In this document: one piece after another, positions 1-27,815 of the stretch
Layout: each line of letters starts with the position of its first letter
Numbering within the stretch: the first letter of the stretch is position 1
Sequence record: PP526941.1
Length of the DNA: 64,000 nt
DNA from: Escherichia phage vB_EcoM_ECO78
Reading direction: 5' to 3' (one strand)
Program-made: the position numbers and the translations under genes
Notes under the pieces: generated by a model
The model's database searches: none
Told to the model about the DNA's origin: nothing
The model's input: the letters and a program-made list of their open reading frames with translations, nothing else

Positions 1-1433
1 CTCTTGGAAAAATTATTACTGATTCTGGTATTTTATTAGCTGAAATTGAAAATGCCGAAGCTGCTATGACAGCTGTTGACTTTCAAGCAAATCTCGAAAA
101 ATATGGAATTCCAGGAGTAGTAGCTCTTTATCCAGGCGAGTTGGGCGATAAAATCGAAATTGAAATCGTATCTAAAGCTGACTACGCAAAAGGTGCTTCT
201 GCATTACTCCCAATTTATCCAGGTGGCGGAACACGCGCATCTACTGCCAAAGCAGTGTTTGGATATGGACCACAAACTGATTCGCAGTATGCTATTATAG
301 TTCGTCGTAATGATGCTATTGTTCAAAGCGTTGTTCTTTCAACTAAGCGTGGTGAAAAAGATATTTACGATAGTAACATCTATATCGATGACTTTTTCGC
401 AAAAGGTGGCTCAGAATATATTTTTGCAACTGCACAAAACTGGCCAGAAGGCTTCTCTGGAATTTTAACTCTGTCTGGTGGATTATCATCAAATGCTGAA
501 GTAACAGCAGGAGATTTGATGGAAGCTTGGGACTTCTTTGCTGACCGTGAATCTGTTGATGTTCAGTTGTTTATTGCGGGTTCTTGTGCCGGTGAATCTT
601 TAGAAACAGCATCTACTGTCCAAAAACACGTCGTTTCAATTGGGGATGCTCGCCAAGATTGCTTAGTATTGTGCTCTCCTCCGCGTGAAACTGTAGTTGG
701 AATTCCTGTAACTCGTGCAGTAGATAATTTAGTTAACTGGAGAACTGCAGCAGGTTCATACACTGATAATAACTTTAATATCAGTTCAACCTATGCAGCA
801 ATTGATGGTAACTACAAATATCAGTATGACAAATATAATGATGTGAATCGTTGGGTTCCATTAGCAGCTGATATTGCTGGTTTATGCGCAAGAACTGATA
901 ACGTTTCTCAGACTTGGATGTCACCAGCTGGTTATAATCGTGGTCAGATTTTGAACGTTATTAAACTGGCTATTGAAACTCGCCAGGCTCAGCGCGACCG
1001 TTTATACCAAGAAGCTATCAACCCGGTAACTGGTACAGGTGGTGATGGTTACGTATTGTATGGTGATAAAACAGCTACTTCTGTTCCTTCTCCATTTGAT
1101 CGTATTAACGTTCGTCGTCTGTTTAACATGTTGAAAACGAATATCGGACGTAGTTCAAAATATCGTTTGTTCGAATTAAACAACGCGTTTACTCGTTCAT
1201 CATTCCGCACAGAAACTGCCCAGTACTTACAGGGAATTAAAGCTCTCGGTGGAATTTATGAATATCGTGTAGTTTGCGATACAACAAATAACACTCCGTC
1301 AGTAATTGATAGAAATGAGTTTGTTGCAACATTCTACATCCAACCGGCTAGAAGCATTAACTACATTACCTTAAACTTCGTAGCAACTGCTACTGGTGCA
1401 GATTTCGATGAGTTAACTGGTCTTGCAGGTTAA
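1..1433 (+). CDS. 18: tail sheath protein gp18, C-terminal part (5' end lies upstream of window)
   Basis: Frame is open from base 3 to stop at 1431-1433 with no upstream stop; sits directly upstream of gp19-gp20 as in T4; large Gly/Thr-rich structural protein. Confidence 0.85.
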   Translation, partial: LGKIITDSGILLAEIENAEAAMTAVDFQANLEKYGIPGVVALYPGELGDKIEIEIVSKADYAKGASALLPIYPGGGTRASTAKAVFGYGPQTDSQYAIIVRRNDAIVQSVVLSTKRGEKDIYDSNIYIDDFFAKGGSEYIFATAQNWPEGFSGILTLSGGLSSNAEVTAGDLMEAWDFFADRESVDVQLFIAGSCAGESLETASTVQKHVVSIGDARQDCLVLCSPPRETVVGIPVTRAVDNLVNWRTAAGSYTDNNFNISSTYAAIDGNYKYQYDKYNDVNRWVPLAADIAGLCARTDNVSQTWMSPAGYNRGQILNVIKLAIETRQAQRDRLYQEAINPVTGTGGDGYVLYGDKTATSVPSPFDRINVRRLFNMLKTNIGRSSKYRLFELNNAFTRSSFRTETAQYLQGIKALGGIYEYRVVCDTTNNTPSVIDRNEFVATFYIQPARSINYITLNFVATATGADFDELTGLAG

Positions 1434-1449
1434 TACAGTGCATTCTAAA

Positions 1450-1467
1450 GGCCTGTTTCGGCAGGCC
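1450..1467 (+). terminator. GC stem-loop with UUCG-type loop downstream of gene 18 (terminator or RNA-stability element)
   Basis: GGCCUG(U)-UUCG-(G)CAGGCC inverted repeat read in sequence; no strong U tract follows. Confidence 0.4.
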
Positions 1468-1468
1468 A

Positions 1469-1476
1469 TATAAATA
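1469..1476 (+). promoter_or_regulatory. T4-type late promoter (TATAAATA)
   Basis: Exact TATAAATA directly after the stem-loop, upstream of gene 19. Confidence 0.55.
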
Positions 1477-1527
1477 CACTATATCCTTAATTCTTTAATT
1501 CTATATGCCCTAGGTTAAACATAGGGA

Positions 1528-1535
1528 TATAAATA
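1528..1535 (+). promoter_or_regulatory. T4-type late promoter (TATAAATA) for gene 19
   Basis: Exact TATAAATA 15 nt upstream of GAGG Shine-Dalgarno and ATG at 1550. Confidence 0.6.
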
Positions 1536-1549
1536 CTACAGAGGCTAAT

Positions 1550-2041
1550 ATGTTTGTAGATGATGTAACACGAGCGTTTGAATCTGGTGATTTTGCTCGA
1601 CCTAACTTATTCCAAGTAGAAATTTCTTATCTTGGACAAAATTTTACGTTTCAATGTAAAGCTACTGCTTTACCAGCTGGTATTGTAGAAAAAATTCCAG
1701 TCGGATTTATGAACCGTAAAATTAACGTAGCAGGCGATCGTACATTCGATGACTGGACTGTTACAGTAATGAACGATGAGGCACATGATGCTCGTCAGAA
1801 GTTCGTTGATTGGCAAAGCATTGCCGCTGGGCAAGGAAACGAAATTACTGGTGGAAAACCTGCAGAGTATAAAAAGAGCGCTATCGTTCGTCAATATGCT
1901 CGTGACGCTAAAACAGTAACAAAAGAAATTGAAATTAAAGGTCTGTGGCCTACTAACGTGGGTGAACTTCAATTAGATTGGGATTCAAACAATGAAATCC
2001 AAACATTTGAAGTAACTCTTGCTCTCGATTATTGGGAATAA
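1550..2041 (+). CDS. 19: tail tube protein gp19
   Basis: 163 aa, same length as T4 gp19; synteny between 18 and 20; GAGG SD 5 nt upstream. Confidence 0.93.
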   Translation: MFVDDVTRAFESGDFARPNLFQVEISYLGQNFTFQCKATALPAGIVEKIPVGFMNRKINVAGDRTFDDWTVTVMNDEAHDARQKFVDWQSIAAGQGNEITGGKPAEYKKSAIVRQYARDAKTVTKEIEIKGLWPTNVGELQLDWDSNNEIQTFEVTLALDYWE

Positions 2042-2048
2042 AATGAAT

Positions 2049-2062
2049 GGGGAGAAATCCCC
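2049..2062 (+). terminator. stem-loop GGGGAGAAAUCCCC downstream of gene 19
   Basis: Perfect 5-bp GC stem with GAAA loop; no U tract, so may be a stability hairpin rather than a terminator. Confidence 0.35.
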
Positions 2063-2073
2063 ATCCTGCTTAA

Positions 2074-3698
<1,625 letters not shown>

Positions 3699-5868: not shown

Positions 5869-7434
5869 ATGACTATCAAAACTAAAGCTGAACTTTTGAA
5901 CAAATGGAAGCCATTACTGGAAGGTGAAGGTTTACCGGAAATTGCTAATAGCAAACAAGCGATTATCGCTAAAATCTTTGAAAACCAGGAAAAAGATTTC
6001 CAGACAGCTCCGGAATATAAAGACGAAAAAATTGCTCAGGCATTCGGTTCTTTCTTAACAGAAGCTGAAATCGGTGGTGACCATGGTTACAATGCTACTA
6101 ACATCGCTGCAGGTCAGACTTCTGGCGCAGTAACCCAGATTGGCCCAGCTGTTATGGGTATGGTACGTCGTGCTATTCCTAACCTGATTGCTTTCGATAT
6201 TTGCGGTGTTCAGCCGATGAACAGCCCGACTGGCCAGGTATTCGCACTGCGTGCAGTATATGGTAAAGACCCAATCGCTTCCGATGCTAAAGAAGCATTC
6301 CACCCAATGTATGGTCCAGATGCAATGTTCTCTGGCCAGGGTGCTGCTAAGAAATTCCCAGCTCTGGCTGCTAGCACACAAACCGTTGTAGGTGATATCT
6401 ATACTCACTTCTTCCAGGAAACTGGTACTGTGTATCTGCAAGCTTCCGCTGTAGTAACAATCGATGCTGGTGCGACTGATGCTGCTAAATTAGATGCTGA
6501 AATTAAGAAACAAATGGAAGCTGGTGCACTGGTAGAAATCGCTGAAGGTATGGCTACTTCTATCGCTGAACTTCAGGAAGGTTTCAACGGTTCTACCGAT
6601 AACCCATGGAATGAAATGGGCTTCCGTATCGATAAACAAGTTATCGAAGCTAAATCTCGTCAGCTGAAAGCTGCTTACTCTATTGAATTAGCACAAGACC
6701 TCCGCGCTGTTCACGGTATGGATGCTGATGCTGAACTGTCTGGTATTCTGGCTACAGAAATTATGCTGGAAATCAACCGCGAAGTTGTTGATTGGATTAA
6801 CTACTCAGCTCAGGTTGGTAAATCTGGTATGACCCTGACTCCAGGTTCTAAAGCTGGTGTATTTGACTTCCAGGATCCGATTGATATTCGTGGTGCTCGC
6901 TGGGCGGGTGAATCCTTTAAAGCTCTGTTGTTCCAGATTGACAAAGAAGCAGTTGAAATTGCTCGTCAGACTGGTCGCGGCGAAGGTAACTTCATTATCG
7001 CTTCCCGTAACGTAGTTAACGTTCTGGCTTCAGTTGATACTGGCATTTCTTATGCTGCACAGGGTCTGGCTACCGGCTTCAACACTGATACTACCAAGTC
7101 AGTATTTGCTGGTGTTCTGGGTGGTAAATACCGTGTATATATCGATCAGTATGCTAAACAGGATTATTTCACTGTAGGTTATAAAGGTCCGAACGAAATG
7201 GATGCTGGTATTTACTACGCTCCATATGTAGCTCTGACTCCGCTGCGTGGTTCCGATCCGAAGAACTTCCAACCAGTAATGGGATTCAAAACTCGTTACG
7301 GTATCGGTATCAACCCATTTGCAGAATCCGCTGCTCAGGCTCCGGCTTCTCGCATCCAGAGCGGTATGCCTTCTATTCTGAATAGCCTTGGTAAAAACGC
7401 TTACTTCCGCCGTGTATATGTTAAAGGTATCTAA
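5869..7434 (+). CDS. 23: major capsid protein gp23
   Basis: 521 aa; N-terminus MTIKTKAELLNKWKPLLEGEG and overall sequence recognised as T4 gp23; synteny. Confidence 0.96.
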   Translation: MTIKTKAELLNKWKPLLEGEGLPEIANSKQAIIAKIFENQEKDFQTAPEYKDEKIAQAFGSFLTEAEIGGDHGYNATNIAAGQTSGAVTQIGPAVMGMVRRAIPNLIAFDICGVQPMNSPTGQVFALRAVYGKDPIASDAKEAFHPMYGPDAMFSGQGAAKKFPALAASTQTVVGDIYTHFFQETGTVYLQASAVVTIDAGATDAAKLDAEIKKQMEAGALVEIAEGMATSIAELQEGFNGSTDNPWNEMGFRIDKQVIEAKSRQLKAAYSIELAQDLRAVHGMDADAELSGILATEIMLEINREVVDWINYSAQVGKSGMTLTPGSKAGVFDFQDPIDIRGARWAGESFKALLFQIDKEAVEIARQTGRGEGNFIIASRNVVNVLASVDTGISYAAQGLATGFNTDTTKSVFAGVLGGKYRVYIDQYAKQDYFTVGYKGPNEMDAGIYYAPYVALTPLRGSDPKNFQPVMGFKTRYGIGINPFAESAAQAPASRIQSGMPSILNSLGKNAYFRRVYVKGI

Positions 7435-7517: not shown

Positions 7518-8801
7518 ATGGCTAAAATCAACGAACTTCTGCGCGAATCAACCACAACGAATAGCAACTCAATCGGTCGCCCAAATCTCGTTGCTTTGAC
7601 TCGCGCTACCACTAAATTAATATATTCTGACATTGTAGCAACGCAAAGAACTAATCAACCTGTTGCTGCTTTTTATGGTATCAAATACCTTAACCCAGAT
7701 AACGAATTTACATTTAAAACTGGTGCTACTTACGCTGGCGAAGCTGGGTATGTAGACCGAGAACAAATCACAGAATTAACAGAAGAGTCTAAATTAACTC
7801 TCAATAAAGGCGATTTATTCAAATATAATAATATCGTTTATAAAGTATTAGAAGATACACCATTTGCTGATATTGAAGAAAGCGATTTAGAATTAGCTCT
7901 TCAGATTGCAATTGTTCTTTTAAAGGTTCGTCTATTTTCTGATGCTGCAGTAACAAGCAAATTTGAAAGCTCTGATAGTGAAATTGCGGATGCTAGATTC
8001 CAGATTAATAAATGGCAAACCGCGGTTAAATCTCGTAAACTTAAAACTGGCATCACAGTTGAATTAGCACAAGATTTAGAAGCAAATGGATTCGATGCTC
8101 CTAATTTCTTGGAAGATTTGCTTGCAACCGAAATGGCAGATGAAATCAATAAAGATATTCTACAGTCTTTGATTACAGTGTCAAAACGCTATAAAGTTAC
8201 AGGAATTACTGATACTGGATTCATTGATTTGAGTTATGCATCTGCACCCGAAGCGGGTCGTTCATTATACCGAATGGTATGTGAAATGGTTTCGCATATC
8301 CAAAAAGAATCAACTTATACAGCAACGTTCTGTGTTGCTTCAGCTCGTGCTGCTGCGATTCTTGCTGCATCAGGTTGGTTAAAACATAAACCAGAAGATG
8401 ATAAATATCTTTCACAAAATGCCTATGGGTTCTTAGCTAATGGTTTACCGCTTTATTGCGATACTAACAGCCCATTAGATTATGTAATCGTTGGCGTAGT
8501 AGAAAATATCGGTGAAAAAGAAATTGTTGGATCAATTTTCTATGCTCCGTATACAGAAGGTCTCGACTTAGATGACCCTGAACATGTAGGTGCATTTAAA
8601 GTTGTGGTTGATCCAGAAAGCTTACAACCGTCTATCGGTTTATTAGTTAGATATGCTTTATCAGCAAATCCTTACACTGTAGCAAAAGATGAAAAAGAAG
8701 CAAGAATAATTGACGGTGGAGACATGGATAAAATGGCAGGTCGTTCAGATTTGTCTGTTTTATTAGGTGTTAAATTACCAAAAATTATTATCGATGAATA
8801 A
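7518..8801 (+). CDS. 24: head vertex protein gp24
   Basis: 427 aa, the T4 gp24 length; synteny after gene 23. Confidence 0.93.
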   Translation: MAKINELLRESTTTNSNSIGRPNLVALTRATTKLIYSDIVATQRTNQPVAAFYGIKYLNPDNEFTFKTGATYAGEAGYVDREQITELTEESKLTLNKGDLFKYNNIVYKVLEDTPFADIEESDLELALQIAIVLLKVRLFSDAAVTSKFESSDSEIADARFQINKWQTAVKSRKLKTGITVELAQDLEANGFDAPNFLEDLLATEMADEINKDILQSLITVSKRYKVTGITDTGFIDLSYASAPEAGRSLYRMVCEMVSHIQKESTYTATFCVASARAAAILAASGWLKHKPEDDKYLSQNAYGFLANGLPLYCDTNSPLDYVIVGVVENIGEKEIVGSIFYAPYTEGLDLDDPEHVGAFKVVVDPESLQPSIGLLVRYALSANPYTVAKDEKEARIIDGGDMDKMAGRSDLSVLLGVKLPKIIIDE

Positions 8802-23227: not shown

Positions 23228-23231
23228 CAAT

Positions 23232-23249
23232 GGGGACCTTTCGGTCCCC
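23232..23249. terminator. bidirectional rho-independent terminator between gene 54 and the convergent alt-region genes
   Basis: GGGGACC-UUUC-GGUCCCC followed by AUAUUUUUAUUU. Confidence 0.65.
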
Positions 23250-23255
23250 ATATTT

Positions 23256-23546
23256 TTATTTACGGAATGAAATGAAAGCAGCAACTGAAGCAACTAAACT
23301 GTCTTCAATATAAACTTCAATTTTTACCGGAGCTTCTGACTCAAATTTACCTGTTACTACACCCTGAAAAATACTTTCAGTCTGTTCTGGTTTTGAAAAA
23401 TTTTCAGAAGGAAAAATTCCGAACTTTTTATCTGTTCCAAAAATTTTGATAAATTCATCGTAAACTGCTTCATTAAAAGCATTATCAGCAGGAATAACGC
23501 CTTCAACTACAAGTTCTTGACCTAAAAAGCGTAAAGAAGATTTCAT
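23256..23546 (-). CDS. hypothetical protein downstream of alt
   Basis: 96-aa ORF with GAGGA SD, driven by an early-type promoter/leader cassette. Confidence 0.55.
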   Translation of the reverse strand: MKSSLRFLGQELVVEGVIPADNAFNEAVYDEFIKIFGTDKKFGIFPSENFSKPEQTESIFQGVVTGKFESEAPVKIEVYIEDSLVASVAAFISFRK

Positions 23547-23577: not shown

Positions 23578-23607
23578 ACTATAACACAACACGAGGGACT
23601 TGTAAAC
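23578..23607 (-). promoter_or_regulatory. T4 early-type promoter (copy 1 of a duplicated promoter/leader cassette)
   Basis: Minus strand: GTTTACA (-35), 17-18 nt spacer, TATAGT (-10), leader ...CAUAACAUGAGGA to ATG; near-identical to 38401-38454. Confidence 0.55.
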
Positions 23608-25664
23608 TACATTTTGAACTTTTTAGACATTCCGTTGATGTTAACCAAAGAAGCTAAGATTTGAGAAACTTCATTTTCCTCTTCTTTTGATTCTTCTACA
23701 AGGAATTGATTAAATCCAGCCATTGGACGAACTTCACCAGTTTCCATTAGATGGTCGCCATCATATACCGATTCCTCTAATTGTTCAGAAGGAGGAACGA
23801 TTGTACCTTCGATTAGATACTTGTTATAAGCAGTTTCTTTCATAAAGTACGTACTTACTTTATTAATCTTCAGTAAAATTCCACGTGGTAGAATAACTTC
23901 AGCTTCTGATGGAAATCCTGATAAATGACCTGGAACGATAACTTTGATTCGTTCAGCTCCTTTAATTACCATACCCACGCTAGTTTCAGCATCTTCATTA
24001 GCATATGTAGAATGACTACCCATATGCATCAAATCTTCTGCATCAACGGAACCTTCTCCTTCACCAGAAAATACTGCGCCGGAATCATCTAGAGCCATAT
24101 AGTTTTTACCATGCTCGCCGAAGATATTTGGTTTAAGTGATGTTGATACGAAGTTCTTGAAATAGAACATTTTATTTTCAATGTTATGACGCAAAGTTTT
24201 AAAGGTAACTTCTTGTCCGCGATAAAGCGTAGTTCCTGGAGGAAGAACTGATCCTTTGGCAAAGGCAGAATCAAGCGTCTCAATATGTTTAATAGCTCGT
24301 TCCATATATTCTTCACGGGTAGAATCTGGTTTACCCAAAAGGAACGAGTTCATTTCAACATATGAATCTGCACAATAATCTTCAATTACATCAGATTCAG
24401 CTTGAGTTAATCCTTTTGGAGTTACTTCAGTACTTGCATATTCATACGCCTGAGCGGCAGATTCATTAATCAATTTATAAATGCCATTCATTACAAATTG
24501 AATAATAGCTGTCTTTTCATCTGGCGTGGCTTTAGAACCTTTAACTAAATCATTAATAATTTTCTTAATAACATCAAAGCTATTAGAAATATTAATGTCA
24601 GCAAGATCGCTTAAAATTTTATCAGTTTTATAATCAAAGAATTCTTTATTCTTTAAATATTCTTGAGAACCTTGATATGTTATATCGCTCTGCAACTTGA
24701 TAGATGGATCACGTAAACGTGCATGGGCTAATGCAATATGATTTCGGAAGTTTTCTAGTTCATAATCGCTAGATTTAAAACGAGAAGCACTTCTCATACC
24801 ACCAATAGCTCCTTTGTTGAAGTTTGAACCAATCTGAATAACGCCAGAGTTCATCGGACCTTCTGCTTTATATACCGGAACCTTAGATTCAAACTCTTGA
24901 TATTTCTTAGCAGCGAAGCTATCACCCTGAAGTGAAGCATCAACAGTAGAATATTGAGCTTGTGCTGCTAATCGACGACTAATTTTAGTTTTCTGAATAA
25001 CAGCTTGATCAGTGCGCTTATCATTTTCTAAAGCAATAGAAGCAGCAACAGCGACAGCTTTAGGAACAGCATTACCTGTTTTAACGTCTACATAAACATC
25101 ACCAACCTTTGATTCAACTTTTGTGAATAACTCAGTTGAAATAGGAGGTACACCTGGAATGTCTTCTAAATTGGCATTTTTACGGTAAACCATAATATAT
25201 GCATACTTTTTATCATAGTCCCAGATTTCCTTTAAAAGAACATAACGACCTGCTCCTTTAGTACGTACTAAACGGTCAGCAATAACTTGCATTTGACGAG
25301 CTGCGCCATTTGTTTTACTTTTTAGTACGCGGAATAAGCATGCATCAATTTTATACTGTTTCATTGTTTGAAGAGCAGTATCAAAAACAGCATTAATGAC
25401 ACCAATTGGATTTCCACCCAAGTTTTTAAGCTTAACCAGCGATAGTTTCTCATTAACACCTATCATTACGATATGCATCATTTTATCGCCTGGCTTAACG
25501 TTTTTATTTGTATCACCGCCAGAGGTGTATGTACAAAATCTAAATCCAGGAAGCACGCTTTCTTCACCAGCTTGAATAGCAAAAATTTGAGGTATTTTAT
25601 GCTTAGGATTTAAGTTAACAACCGGCGCCGAAGCGCCGTCAAATAATTCTGTAATAAGTTCCAT
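23607..25664 (-). CDS. Alt-like ADP-ribosyltransferase, downstream paralogue
   Basis: 685 aa; N-terminus MELITELFDGASAPVVNLNPKHKIPQIF parallels the upstream Alt; C-terminal R-S-E ART signature (YRGQ...FVSTSL...SEAEVILPRG). Confidence 0.8.
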   Translation of the reverse strand: MELITELFDGASAPVVNLNPKHKIPQIFAIQAGEESVLPGFRFCTYTSGGDTNKNVKPGDKMMHIVMIGVNEKLSLVKLKNLGGNPIGVINAVFDTALQTMKQYKIDACLFRVLKSKTNGAARQMQVIADRLVRTKGAGRYVLLKEIWDYDKKYAYIMVYRKNANLEDIPGVPPISTELFTKVESKVGDVYVDVKTGNAVPKAVAVAASIALENDKRTDQAVIQKTKISRRLAAQAQYSTVDASLQGDSFAAKKYQEFESKVPVYKAEGPMNSGVIQIGSNFNKGAIGGMRSASRFKSSDYELENFRNHIALAHARLRDPSIKLQSDITYQGSQEYLKNKEFFDYKTDKILSDLADINISNSFDVIKKIINDLVKGSKATPDEKTAIIQFVMNGIYKLINESAAQAYEYASTEVTPKGLTQAESDVIEDYCADSYVEMNSFLLGKPDSTREEYMERAIKHIETLDSAFAKGSVLPPGTTLYRGQEVTFKTLRHNIENKMFYFKNFVSTSLKPNIFGEHGKNYMALDDSGAVFSGEGEGSVDAEDLMHMGSHSTYANEDAETSVGMVIKGAERIKVIVPGHLSGFPSEAEVILPRGILLKINKVSTYFMKETAYNKYLIEGTIVPPSEQLEESVYDGDHLMETGEVRPMAGFNQFLVEESKEEENEVSQILASLVNINGMSKKFKM

Positions 25665-25667
25665 GAT

Positions 25668-27764
25668 TTATCCTTGAACGAACTTGTAAGGCATGTTTGT
25701 AATATCTATGCAAGACGCAATAATTCCAAGAGATGATTCTACTTTTTGTTTAACATTTGATGAAACAAACGATGCAAAGTCAACTCTGTCTTCTATTTCA
25801 ATATCACCTGTCATTGCAACTACTTCACCGGTTTCCATTAGACGGTCACCGTCATAAATTACTGATTCGGTGAGTTCTTCCGTAGTCATAACTTCAGCTT
25901 GAATGAGTTTTGTATTATTAGATGTTGTTCCGTCATTATTAGAAGCATCAGTTATTTTATTAACTTTGACCATCAATCCGCGTGGTAGAATAACTTCAGC
26001 TTCTGTTGCTATTCCGAGACTTCCTGGATATACAACATTAACTTTATGAGCTCCATCAATTGCCCATCCTATTTGAACTTTAACGTATTCAGGATTTTCT
26101 TTATACGCTCTTATTTCGTTTGGATTAATAGTTATTCCTTCTTCATTTTTATCAACTGTCAATTCATTACGAGCTTCTGGTTCTAAAAGACCAATACCAG
26201 CATGCGTAATTCCAAAACGTCCAAAAATGATAGGAGTTAAAGAAGTAGATACAAAATTTCTGAAATAAAACACTTTATTTTTAACTAGTGCTTCGTATAT
26301 AGGAGCAGTCATGCTTTGAGCACGATAAACTGTAATGCCTTCTGGTATACGGTCACCGTTTTCAAAAGCTGAATCTAAGTTATTTATAGCAGATTCAATT
26401 TCTTTTTCACTCATTACATCATATCGTTCTGGATTGTAGCGACCCAAAAGAAGATTATTGATGTCAGTATATCCTGAACCGCAATACTCTCTAATGCCGC
26501 GCTTTTGTGATGGAGTATATTTAGAACCATCACGGGCAATAGTAATATCAATCATTGGACCTGCACCAATTCCAGAAAAGCTATAAATCATTCGTTTGAG
26601 GAATTTAGTTTTTGCTGCGTTCCAGGAATTTTTAGTTATTTCTTCCCAGACTTCATCTGGCTGTCCTTTACGGGTTTTATTATGTTTATCAAGCCAATTA
26701 TCTTTATATTCTTCAAAGAATTTATTAACAGCTGCTGCGTATTTCTCTAAACATTTTATTGAAGTAGTTGGTTCATTTTTAATCGCATTAAGAATTACAT
26801 CTTTAATTTTTTCAGAAACTTCATCAACCTCACTTTTTGAAAAGAATTTATAGTCATAGTGAAGTTCATTTGCAGTTCCTTCAGCAATAATTTTTGCTGC
26901 CTTAGTTTTAGAAGCTAATGAATTAATTCCAAGCTTCATTTCTTCTGCTTCGGGAATTAAAGGAGCGGTAGCAGGTTTATTAAAATTAGCTGCGGTAGAT
27001 TCATACTTCTGGAATAATTCACTTTCAAATCTAGAAGATTCTAATGATTGACTTTGCGCAATTGCTCTACGGGAAATTTTAACTTTAACAATAACAGCTT
27101 GGTCAGAACGTTTATCATTTTCTTGTGCAATAGATGCTGCAATTGCCTCATTTTTAGTTACTTGAGCTCCAGTATCTTTATTGATATAAACATCACCGAC
27201 CTTCGATTCAACTTTAGTAAAGAGCTCGGTACTAATTTCCGGAACTCCTGGAATGTCTTCTAGTGATACATTTTTGCGATGTATAAGAATATATGCATAC
27301 TTTTTATCATAATCCCAGAGTTCCTTAAGAAGGACGTATCTGCCACCTGAACGACTACGGATGAGCCTATCAGCAATAACTTGAATTTGTCGAGCTTGGC
27401 CAGCAGTTTTAGACTTAAGAATACGAAGCATACAAGCATCAATTTTATACTGACGCATAGTTTGCATTGCAACAGTAAAAACTGAATTGATATAATTAAT
27501 TGGGCTTGGTCCAAGACCTTTTAATTTAGCAATTGAACCTTTAGCAGTTAATGTAAAAGGAACAATATGCATCATTTTATCGCCCATCTTTAAATCACGA
27601 TTAGTATCACCTCCAGATGTATAGGTACATAAACGAAAGCCTGGTTGTTCAATTGCATCATCAACATGAACTGAAAAAATTTGCGGTATTTTCTTCTTTG
27701 GATTTAAGTTTGTAATCGGAAGAGTAGTATCTTCGTCAAATAATTCTGTAATGAGTTCCATCAT
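25668..27764 (-). CDS. alt: NAD-protein ADP-ribosyltransferase Alt (head-packaged)
   Basis: 698 aa (697 if started at the second ATG, 27761); N-terminal capsid-targeting region MELITELFDEDTT...; C-terminal ART motifs YRAQ...FVSTSL...TEAEVILPRG; late promoter upstream. Confidence 0.88.
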   Translation of the reverse strand: MMELITELFDEDTTLPITNLNPKKKIPQIFSVHVDDAIEQPGFRLCTYTSGGDTNRDLKMGDKMMHIVPFTLTAKGSIAKLKGLGPSPINYINSVFTVAMQTMRQYKIDACMLRILKSKTAGQARQIQVIADRLIRSRSGGRYVLLKELWDYDKKYAYILIHRKNVSLEDIPGVPEISTELFTKVESKVGDVYINKDTGAQVTKNEAIAASIAQENDKRSDQAVIVKVKISRRAIAQSQSLESSRFESELFQKYESTAANFNKPATAPLIPEAEEMKLGINSLASKTKAAKIIAEGTANELHYDYKFFSKSEVDEVSEKIKDVILNAIKNEPTTSIKCLEKYAAAVNKFFEEYKDNWLDKHNKTRKGQPDEVWEEITKNSWNAAKTKFLKRMIYSFSGIGAGPMIDITIARDGSKYTPSQKRGIREYCGSGYTDINNLLLGRYNPERYDVMSEKEIESAINNLDSAFENGDRIPEGITVYRAQSMTAPIYEALVKNKVFYFRNFVSTSLTPIIFGRFGITHAGIGLLEPEARNELTVDKNEEGITINPNEIRAYKENPEYVKVQIGWAIDGAHKVNVVYPGSLGIATEAEVILPRGLMVKVNKITDASNNDGTTSNNTKLIQAEVMTTEELTESVIYDGDRLMETGEVVAMTGDIEIEDRVDFASFVSSNVKQKVESSLGIIASCIDITNMPYKFVQG

Positions 27765-27784
27765 ATCCTCTCTAGTGTTTATTC

Positions 27785-27792
27785 TATTTATA
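27785..27792 (-). promoter_or_regulatory. T4-type late promoter (TATAAATA on minus strand) for alt
   Basis: Plus-strand TATTTATA 21 nt upstream of the alt ATG, directly after a terminator hairpin. Confidence 0.55.
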
Positions 27793-27797
27793 AAATT

Positions 27798-27815
27798 AAA
27801 GGCCCGAAGGCCTTT
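27798..27815 (-). terminator. rho-independent terminator separating the gene 30 early unit from alt
   Basis: AAAGGCC-CGAA-GGCCUUU hairpin followed on the minus strand by AAUUUUAUAAAUAG. Confidence 0.5.

Follow-up and report, generated by a model that had tools for sequence, protein, structure and literature searches.

Alt of bacteriophage T4 is the classic virion-delivered enzyme that reprograms its host before phage gene expression. An NAD+--arginine ADP-ribosyltransferase (gpAlt, NP_049811), it is present at about 40 copies per head and is cleaved by gp21 at its N terminus (PMC9958956; PMC9026906). Mass spectrometry has placed the gp21 cuts at ITE-6 and LTE-619, which leave a mature protein of 68.2 kDa (PMC5694885), and time-resolved transcriptome and proteome data identify alt as a late gene (PMC9697503). 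Duplication of alt has been in print since 2006, when Nolan et al. listed T4 alt.-1/alt.-2 and a full-length duplicate in phage 44RR as paralogous duplications of alt (PMC1524935), and Jin et al. (2014) described Alt duplication in phages ZZ1, Ac42, JS98, and Bp7 (PMC4177764). The RefSeq record of T4 annotates alt.-1/alt.-2 as "an old duplication of the first part of gene alt," and the RB32 record (2006) names the gene downstream of alt "alt.-2," "similar to alt." In many genomes RefSeq calls both genes "Alt-like RNA polymerase ADP-ribosyltransferase," and in phages JS10 and IME08 they are named alta and altb. Here, we analyze such a pair in Escherichia phage vB_EcoM_ECO78, within a 64,000-nucleotide (nt) stretch of sequence record PP526941.1 (the window), where a prediction made from the letters alone had proposed two tandem, co-transcribed alt paralogs.

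The two genes are confirmed here, and the sequence bears out the original interpretation wherever it can address it. That original prediction had also mentioned an Alt-like neighbor in T-even phages, of no established function. RB32 alt.-2, the T4 RefSeq note, and the two papers cited above agree with this, and we found no functional study of the neighbor in the open-access literature, nor any paper there that tests whether the second protein is in virions, whether it is active, or what it modifies (older T4 and T2 biochemistry may be missing from that literature). The two-gene pair is already known and is annotated in hundreds of phage genomes. Our analysis adds the remnant of the second gene in T4, strong purifying selection on that gene, candidate processing motifs at both ends of both proteins, and two payload lineages, A and B, combined with termini that track the phage lineage. 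Most likely, with a probability of roughly 0.68, both proteins are made late, packaged in the head, and injected, and act as arginine ADP-ribosyltransferases on different targets, and the locus represents the ancestral T-even alt cassette of two genes.

Compared with the described systems, both window proteins are like T4 Alt from end to end, with its catalytic motifs and both gp21 sites, and the upstream copy also has its late promoter and its place in the genome. Only for T4 Alt are activity and targets known. RB32 alt.-2 (ABI95018) is the ortholog of the downstream gene, in the same position within a locus 97.4% identical at the DNA level. In T4, the junction between alt and alt.-1 is as in the window, but the body of the second gene is deleted from alt.-1/alt.-2 (NP_049810, NP_049809). 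The AltA/AltB pairs of the Dhakavirus phages JS10, JS98, and IME08 have the layout and the 3-nt gap of the window pair, but N-terminal modules that are just 42 to 46% identical to those of the window.

Two full-length alt genes in tandem

The original prediction described two neighboring minus-strand open reading frames (ORFs) of 698 and 685 amino acids (aa), 3 bp apart. The pair and the spacing hold, with a gap of exactly 3 nt (ATC between TAA and ATG), but the length of 698 aa probably does not: the upstream gene most likely starts at its second ATG (27761), which gives a protein of 697 aa beginning MELITE. We prefer this start because GAGG lies 5 nt from the second ATG and just 2 nt from the first, because RB32 and T2 are annotated in this way, and because phage Ec_O157kw lacks the first ATG. 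The genes and their landmarks are as follows.

25668..27761, minus strand: upstream alt gene ("AltA-type"), 697 aa with the second ATG as start (698 aa for the mechanical ORF, which begins at 27764)
Upstream protein: N-module at aa 1-240, helical center at ~241-415, ADP-ribosyltransferase (ART) domain at ~416-632, C-terminal propeptide at 633-697
26327-26316, 26255-26238, and 26003-25977, minus strand: upstream catalytic motifs YRAQ, FVSTSL, and EAEVILPRG
25665..25675, minus strand: gene junction, with AAGGA at 25675-25671, the stop codon TAA at 25670-25668, the spacer ATC at 25667-25665, and the next ATG at 25664
23607..25664, minus strand: downstream alt paralog ("AltB-type"; RB32 alt.-2), 685 aa
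24224-24213, 24152-24135, and 23906-23880, minus strand: downstream catalytic motifs YRGQ, FVSTSL, and EAEVILPRG

Profile comparison assigns both ORFs, over their full length, to the T4 Alt family, and the R / S-T-S / E-x-E signature is intact in each. PHROG 802 ("Alt-like RNA polymerase ADP-ribosyltransferase") covers residues 1 to 697 of the upstream protein (E = 3.8e-273) and 1 to 685 of the downstream protein (E = 4.4e-257), and the Pfam family PF03496 (ADPrib_exo_Tox) matches them at E = 1.8e-37 and 5.8e-20, respectively. Chance is no issue for 2-kb ORFs with family E-values below 1e-250. Neither protein had an NCBIfam match; in Pfam the isolated N-modules had none, and the isolated centers gave sub-threshold noise alone (CesA, Noc2, YtxC). 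In the homolog listing, PF26846 is assigned to homologs of the alt proteins.

The common Alt-like N terminus that had been predicted (MELITELFD...NLNPK.KIPQIF) is present in both copies, and so is the complete R-S-E signature. The upstream copy carries YRAQ (479), FVSTSL (503), and T-EAEVILPRG (587), with R480, S505-T-S507, and E587-A-E589; the downstream copy carries YRGQ (481), FVSTSL (505), and S-EAEVILPRG (587), with R482, S507-T-S509, and E587-A-E589. The alignment to T4 Alt, ModA, and ModB that the original prediction had called for places the downstream copy among enzymes that retain the catalytic Arg and Glu: in the five-way alignment of the catalytic region, the few invariant positions include the Y-R arginine, the first serine of S-T-S, and the two E-x-E glutamates. 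The catalytic residues are also invariant across 20 diverse homologs. E-x-E, rather than Q-x-E, marks the arginine-specific R-S-E transferases of the C3/iota-like fold, and the motif in both payloads predicts arginine specificity. In T4 Alt, the mutant E577A, which removes a glutamate of the E-x-E motif in the authors' numbering, is inactive (PMC11404850). Counted on the RefSeq protein these glutamates are E574 and E576, and the published numbering is offset by one.

T4 ModA and ModB have the R, S, and E-x-E catalytic positions in common with the window proteins, but they are otherwise distant. They are about 200 aa long, against 685 and 697 aa, they lack the N-module, the helical center, and the propeptides, and PF03496 does not recognize them; they are early and not packaged, and their genes lie elsewhere in the genome. 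We rejected membership of the window proteins in the ModA/ModB family on the basis of their large size, their N-module, and an identity of only ~15% over the ART domain.

In its AlphaFold model (mean predicted local distance difference test score [pLDDT], 74.6), the downstream copy has an alpha/beta N-module at residues 1 to 238, an all-helical stretch at ~245 to 470, and a beta-rich core at 480 to 625. Foldseek matched the ART core to Vis, Certhrax, CDTa, VIP2, C3bot, and iota Ia (E from 2.6e-8 to ~3e-5), with target template modeling (TM) scores of 0.55 to 0.69 for single-domain targets, and Alt-family models of other T4-like phages in BFVD also match the model. As modeled, then, the downstream copy has the C3/iota-like ADP-ribosyltransferase fold of these bacterial R-S-E toxins. 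It differs from them in sequence (13 to 19% identity) and in delivery, which in the toxins is by a translocon and in T4 Alt by the phage head, and the window Alt proteins have a variable insert of ~50 to 70 residues between S-T-S and E-x-E. A sequence search of the PDB gave no match at E <=1 for the downstream copy and just weak matches to CdtA and iota Ia for the upstream copy; it did not return a solved Alt structure.

Candidate gp21 sites at both ends of both proteins

Residues 7 to 619 of T4 Alt compute to 68.2 kDa, and this agreement with the published mature mass indicates that the cleavage sites are correctly mapped. Both window copies have gp21 motifs at both ends, in aligned positions.

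27761-27744, minus strand: upstream N-terminal propeptide MELITE, gp21 motif I-T-E6
25868-25866, minus strand: codon of the predicted upstream C-terminal gp21 site, L-T-E632, followed by a 65-residue propeptide
25647..25664, minus strand: downstream N-terminal propeptide MELITE, gp21 motif I-T-E6
23607..23774, minus strand: predicted downstream C-terminal gp21 site, L-E-E631 (23774-23772), with its 54-residue acidic propeptide and the stop codon

The predicted mature forms are 626 aa and 70.1 kDa for the upstream protein and 625 aa and 69.2 kDa for the downstream protein. With two prohead-protease sites and an N-module 68% identical to that of its neighbor, the downstream protein would most simply be one that enters the prohead.

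Conservation of the downstream gene and its remnant in T4

We compared the window phage with RB32, T2, Ec_O157kw, and JoYop. The ratio of nonsynonymous to synonymous substitution (dN/dS) for the downstream gene was 0.024 to 0.048, at dS of up to 0.32, and for the upstream gene it was 0.026 to 0.072. The downstream gene is under strong purifying selection, and the constraint on it is at least as great as that on the upstream gene. Its 685-aa ORF was intact in all five genomes translated. By tblastn it is present at >=95% amino acid identity in 396 GenBank records, and the 90%-identity cluster of its protein has 772 member sequences. The locus is more ordinary than the original prediction had estimated, and it is T4, not ECO78, that is the exception.

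Between alt and alt.-3, T4 has alt.-1 and alt.-2 alone. T4 alt.-1 translates to MELITELFDGASAPVVTLNPKHKIPQIFAIQAGEESVLPGFRFCTYTSGGDTNK..., the N terminus of the downstream protein, and the first 54 residues are the same. In BLAST comparisons T4 lacks the counterpart of window positions ~23627 to 25316, a deletion of ~1.7 kb; it retains approximately the first 115 codons of the downstream gene, frameshifted, together with the last ~6. PHROGs 23015 and 15247 (61 and 67 residues) match downstream residues 1 to 56 and 62 to 117, the stretch kept in T4 alt.-1/alt.-2, and both fit the upstream copy much less well. As these alignments show, and contrary to the note in the T4 record, T4 alt.-1/alt.-2 is the remnant of a full-length downstream gene.

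Two further phages have lost the gene. F25 has the same deletion as T4, both lacking window positions ~23624 to 25319, and phage sutha has a different one, which removes window positions 23735 to 25670 and leaves the last 38 codons. The deletions are found at the following positions, in locus coordinates.

6066-6451: T4
2858-3264: F25
2909-3025: sutha

In Tequatrovirus, then, the downstream gene has been lost on at least two independent occasions.

Modular composition and payload lineages

For comparison we divided the proteins, in downstream numbering, into the N-module (residues 1 to 238), the center (239 to 415), the ART domain (416 to 631), and the C-terminal propeptide that follows. The upstream and downstream proteins are 68% identical in the N-module, ~20 to 21% in the center, 35 to 37% in the ART domain, and 43% in the C-terminal tail. 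The prediction that the central regions differ strongly is well founded, since the center, at ~21% identity, is the most divergent segment. Against T4 Alt, the downstream protein scores 68%, 19%, 38%, and 43% over the same modules. The upstream protein is ~98 to 100% identical to T4 Alt in the N-module and 94% in the C-terminal tail, with 32% in the center and 67% in the ART domain, so that by alignment it carries a payload allele different from that of T4. Both upstream alleles are common: tblastn found 316 records at >=90% identity to the window type and 212 at 60 to 80%, the band where T4-type alleles fall. JoYop has a T4-type upstream gene together with the downstream gene. With an identity threshold of 80%, the 120 full-length homologs listed fall into 11 or more payload types.

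The Dhakavirus JS10 has the synteny 30-alt.1-alta-altb-alt.-3-54, with the 3-nt gap of the window. The upstream window protein is 68% identical to JS10 AltA in the center and 93% in the ART domain, and the downstream window protein is 45% and 59% identical to JS10 AltB in the same segments. The N-modules show the reverse of the payloads: they are 65 to 68% identical within a genome and 42 to 46% between the window and JS10. For the flanking genes 48, 54, alt.-3, alt.1, and 30, the identity between window and JS10 is 58 to 65%. The ART identity of the A payload is far above this genomic background, and the N-modules are below it. At the DNA level, the A payloads of the window and JS10 are 78% identical over nucleotides 502 to 1937.

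A pairs with A and B with B across genera, which implies that the payload duplication predates the split between Tequatrovirus and Dhakavirus. The same pairing rules out, for the payloads, independent duplications in the two genera. An upstream catalytic cassette close to that of JS10 AltA, despite flanks at 58 to 65%, argues for exchange of the cassette between genera, and on this comparison at least the A payload has moved between lineages. The termini follow the lineage of the phage, either by gene conversion or because they are co-adapted with the head core.

As a separate observation, the upstream Alt reads as a chimera along its length: residues 1 to 240 and ~641 to 697 are T4-like, and residues ~401 to 640 are 86 to 98% identical to JS10 AltA (JS10 locus 1413-3497).

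Transcription and translation signals

The original prediction placed a late promoter and a terminator ahead of the upstream copy alone, and indeed, of the two start codons, only that of the upstream copy has an exact late-promoter match ahead of it. The minus strand before the first gene reads AAAGGCCTTCGGGCCTTTAATTTTATAAATAGAATAAACACTAGAGAGGATATGATGG, in which a stable hairpin leads straight into TATAAATA.

27785..27792, minus strand: T4-type late promoter consensus TATAAATA, 21 nt before the first ATG (27764) and 24 nt before the likely start (27761)
27798..27815, minus strand: hairpin AAAGGCC-TTCG-GGCCTTT and a T-rich run (-14.2 kcal/mol, z = -3.3)

The late transcription that we propose rests on this consensus match, 21 to 24 nt ahead of the first gene. 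The promoter sequence at 27792-27785 is invariant in T4, T2, JoYop, and Ec_O157kw, and the hairpin is invariant in five phages. The hairpin probably terminates the early unit that precedes it (gene 30 and alt.1); it was not among the calls of a simple terminator scan. In T4 (locus ~8520-8545, corresponding to window 27780-27792), the stretch TATAAATAGAATAGAAT at the alt late promoter contains five extra bases, AATAG, an apparent tandem duplication that the window, T2, JoYop, and Ec_O157kw lack.

Between the two copies we found no late-promoter or other promoter-like motif, only AAGGA, a ribosome-binding site six nt before the second ATG and within the last codons of the first gene. Across T2, JoYop, Ec_O157kw, and T4 (alt/alt.-1), the 81-nt junction varies at just one position. 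This layout (AAGGA, stop codon, 3-nt spacer) suggests translational coupling. There is no terminator directly after the second gene. Since neither a promoter between the copies nor a terminator after the second was found, co-transcription of both alt genes, as originally predicted, is the simplest reading.

Other promoter classes were also considered. A middle promoter was rejected, since the sole MotA-box match in the locus (25037-25029) lies within the downstream coding region and not ahead of a start codon, and a scan of the locus for sigma-70 promoters showed no enrichment (16 sites, with 19 expected).

Phage background and flanking features

A megablast search with the 4.2-kb alt region matched 539 phage records, 277 of which cover >=80% of the region. 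Nearly all matches are 90 to 99% identical, the best at 97.8%, and the matching records are almost all Tequatrovirus, including T2, RB32, RB33, SHBML-50-1, PhiZZ6, and many recent isolates. By these matches the window belongs to a Tequatrovirus, a T2/RB32-like T-even phage, with DNA ~97 to 98% identical to that of RB32, T2, and many others. In the window, as in RB32 and T2, genes 48 and 54 are followed by a minus-strand series that runs alt.-3, the two long ORFs, alt.1, and gene 30 (DNA ligase). The features that follow the downstream alt gene are listed below.

23578-23606, minus strand: candidate sigma-70/early-like promoter TTTACA-17-TATAGT with TG, directly after the downstream alt stop codon and ahead of alt.-3
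23256-23546, minus strand: alt.-3, 96 aa, PHROG 1739 (unknown function)
23230-23251: strong bidirectional hairpin terminator after alt.-3, common to gene 54

Mutants of T4 Alt.-3 with a C-terminal extension escape the CmdTAC defense system (PMC11618068).

Two database entries that bear on the upstream gene deserve mention. In GenBank OP168898.1 (phage ZCEC14; 36913-41070), the upstream alt ortholog, at 100% amino acid identity, is named "thymidylate synthase," an evident mis-annotation. GenBank OR584013.1 ("Pseudomonas phage PsgM02F"; 3-1892) encodes an Alt 97% identical to the upstream window protein; its stated host, Pseudomonas coronafaciens, is an odd label for a Tequatrovirus-like genome.

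Discussion

We propose that one TATAAATA promoter would drive both alt genes late, as a single mRNA, and that the second gene would be translated by coupling or by re-initiation 3 nt past the first stop codon. Each protein is laid out as a payload between two delivery modules. By analogy with T4 Alt, the ~240-aa N-module (MELITE...) and the acidic C-terminal tail would place the protein in the prohead core, and gp21 would trim it at I-T-E6 and at an L-x-E ~55 to 65 residues from the C terminus, to ~70 kDa for the upstream and ~69 kDa for the downstream protein. The payload consists of the helical region and a C3/iota-like R-S-E ADP-ribosyltransferase domain, predicted to be arginine specific. 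Both mature enzymes would be injected with the DNA and would ADP-ribosylate host proteins before phage gene expression, the upstream enzyme probably with the targets of T4 Alt, RNA polymerase alpha among others. Payload lineages A and B have been distinct since before Tequatrovirus and Dhakavirus diverged, and two distinct lineages, each under strong purifying selection, most likely have different host targets.

Several points weigh against this proposal. The gene was deleted at least twice independently (T4, F25, and sutha), so it is dispensable at least on laboratory hosts. In the open-access literature we found no proteomic or biochemical report of the downstream protein as present in virions, cleaved, injected, or active. 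The model of the downstream protein has a pLDDT below 50 in the loop that joins S-T-S to E-x-E (residues 528 to 557), and it consequently says nothing on substrate recognition. In addition, the upstream gene itself contains another exact TATAAATA (26388-26381, minus strand), ~720 nt before the downstream start codon, which may be a second late start. This internal match is kept in the T2-type allele (T2, RB32, and Ec_O157kw), where it encodes Ala-Ile-Asn, and is absent from the T4/JoYop allele; we treat it as a coding coincidence.

The tolerated losses also bear on whether the second enzyme does anything that the first does not. T4, F25, and sutha retain the upstream gene alone, and the two copies agree in overall architecture, E-x-E motif, and predicted processing, as would be expected if the downstream protein were a packaged and active isoenzyme that modifies the same targets as Alt (Arg265 of RNA polymerase alpha, and others) to increase dosage or serve as a back-up. 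We think this unlikely, given payloads that within one genome are just 21% (center) and 35% (ART) identical and that are each conserved with a counterpart in another genus under strong purifying selection; so long a separation argues for different functions. The losses might instead mark a gene in decay, since T4, F25, and sutha hold fragments alone. For this phage, however, the view of the downstream ORF as a pseudogene in the making is refuted by the intact ORFs and low dN/dS of the five genomes, by its tblastn conservation in ~400 records, and by its retention of all catalytic residues, and we give it a negligible probability.

Other alternatives accept a working gene but part with the proposal over where the protein goes or what it modifies. 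Late expression is predicted in any case, and the literature treats T4 Alt both as an enzyme and as a protein of the core (PMC11404850), so the downstream protein could stay in the producing cell, or be a core or structural part, modifying host or phage proteins late in infection or nothing. Two gp21 motifs conserved at aligned positions make sense only for a protein that enters the prohead, and an N-module 68% identical to that of Alt and catalytic residues invariant across 20 diverse homologs also speak against this reading; we rate it as rather improbable, somewhat below the redundant isoenzyme. A change of substrate is a different matter. ART domains of the superfamily have shifted repeatedly to RNA or DNA targets (PMC11618068), and T4 ModB is described as attaching RNA chains to proteins (bioRxiv 10.1101/2021.06.04.446905). 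The downstream enzyme might likewise modify a target other than protein arginine, such as nucleic acid, or use NAD-capped RNA as ModB does, but we regard this as very unlikely. Our preference stays with two injected arginine-specific enzymes.

A broader interpretation is tentative, and we put it at slightly less than even odds. Natural T-even phages would inject two ADP-ribosyltransferases, of which the B type, lost by laboratory T4, would hit time-zero host targets that T4 never touches, possibly translation, stress, or defense proteins. Alt would be a delivery chassis with an exchangeable payload: its termini would co-evolve with, or be homogenized within, the head of each phage, and its two payload lineages would sometimes be swapped between genera. 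The T4 internal proteins IPI-III follow a like logic, a conserved, gp21-cleaved targeting part joined to variable injected cargo (PMC5694885; PMC9026906), but they have no sequence relation to Alt, which has a large folded N-module and is cut at both ends.

As the result of a genome scan, the locus is ordinary and the RefSeq gene names are correct. Nearly all experiments on Alt have been done in T4, a deletion mutant for the second gene. If the broader interpretation is true, the textbook T4 set of three enzymes (Alt, ModA, and ModB) under-describes the family. The combination of constant termini with a variable payload suggests that the Alt termini could be a natural scaffold for cargo delivery through the T4 head. 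And if the second enzyme is packaged and has targets of its own, host takeover by natural T-even phages, many therapeutic isolates among them, would start with two injected modifiers.

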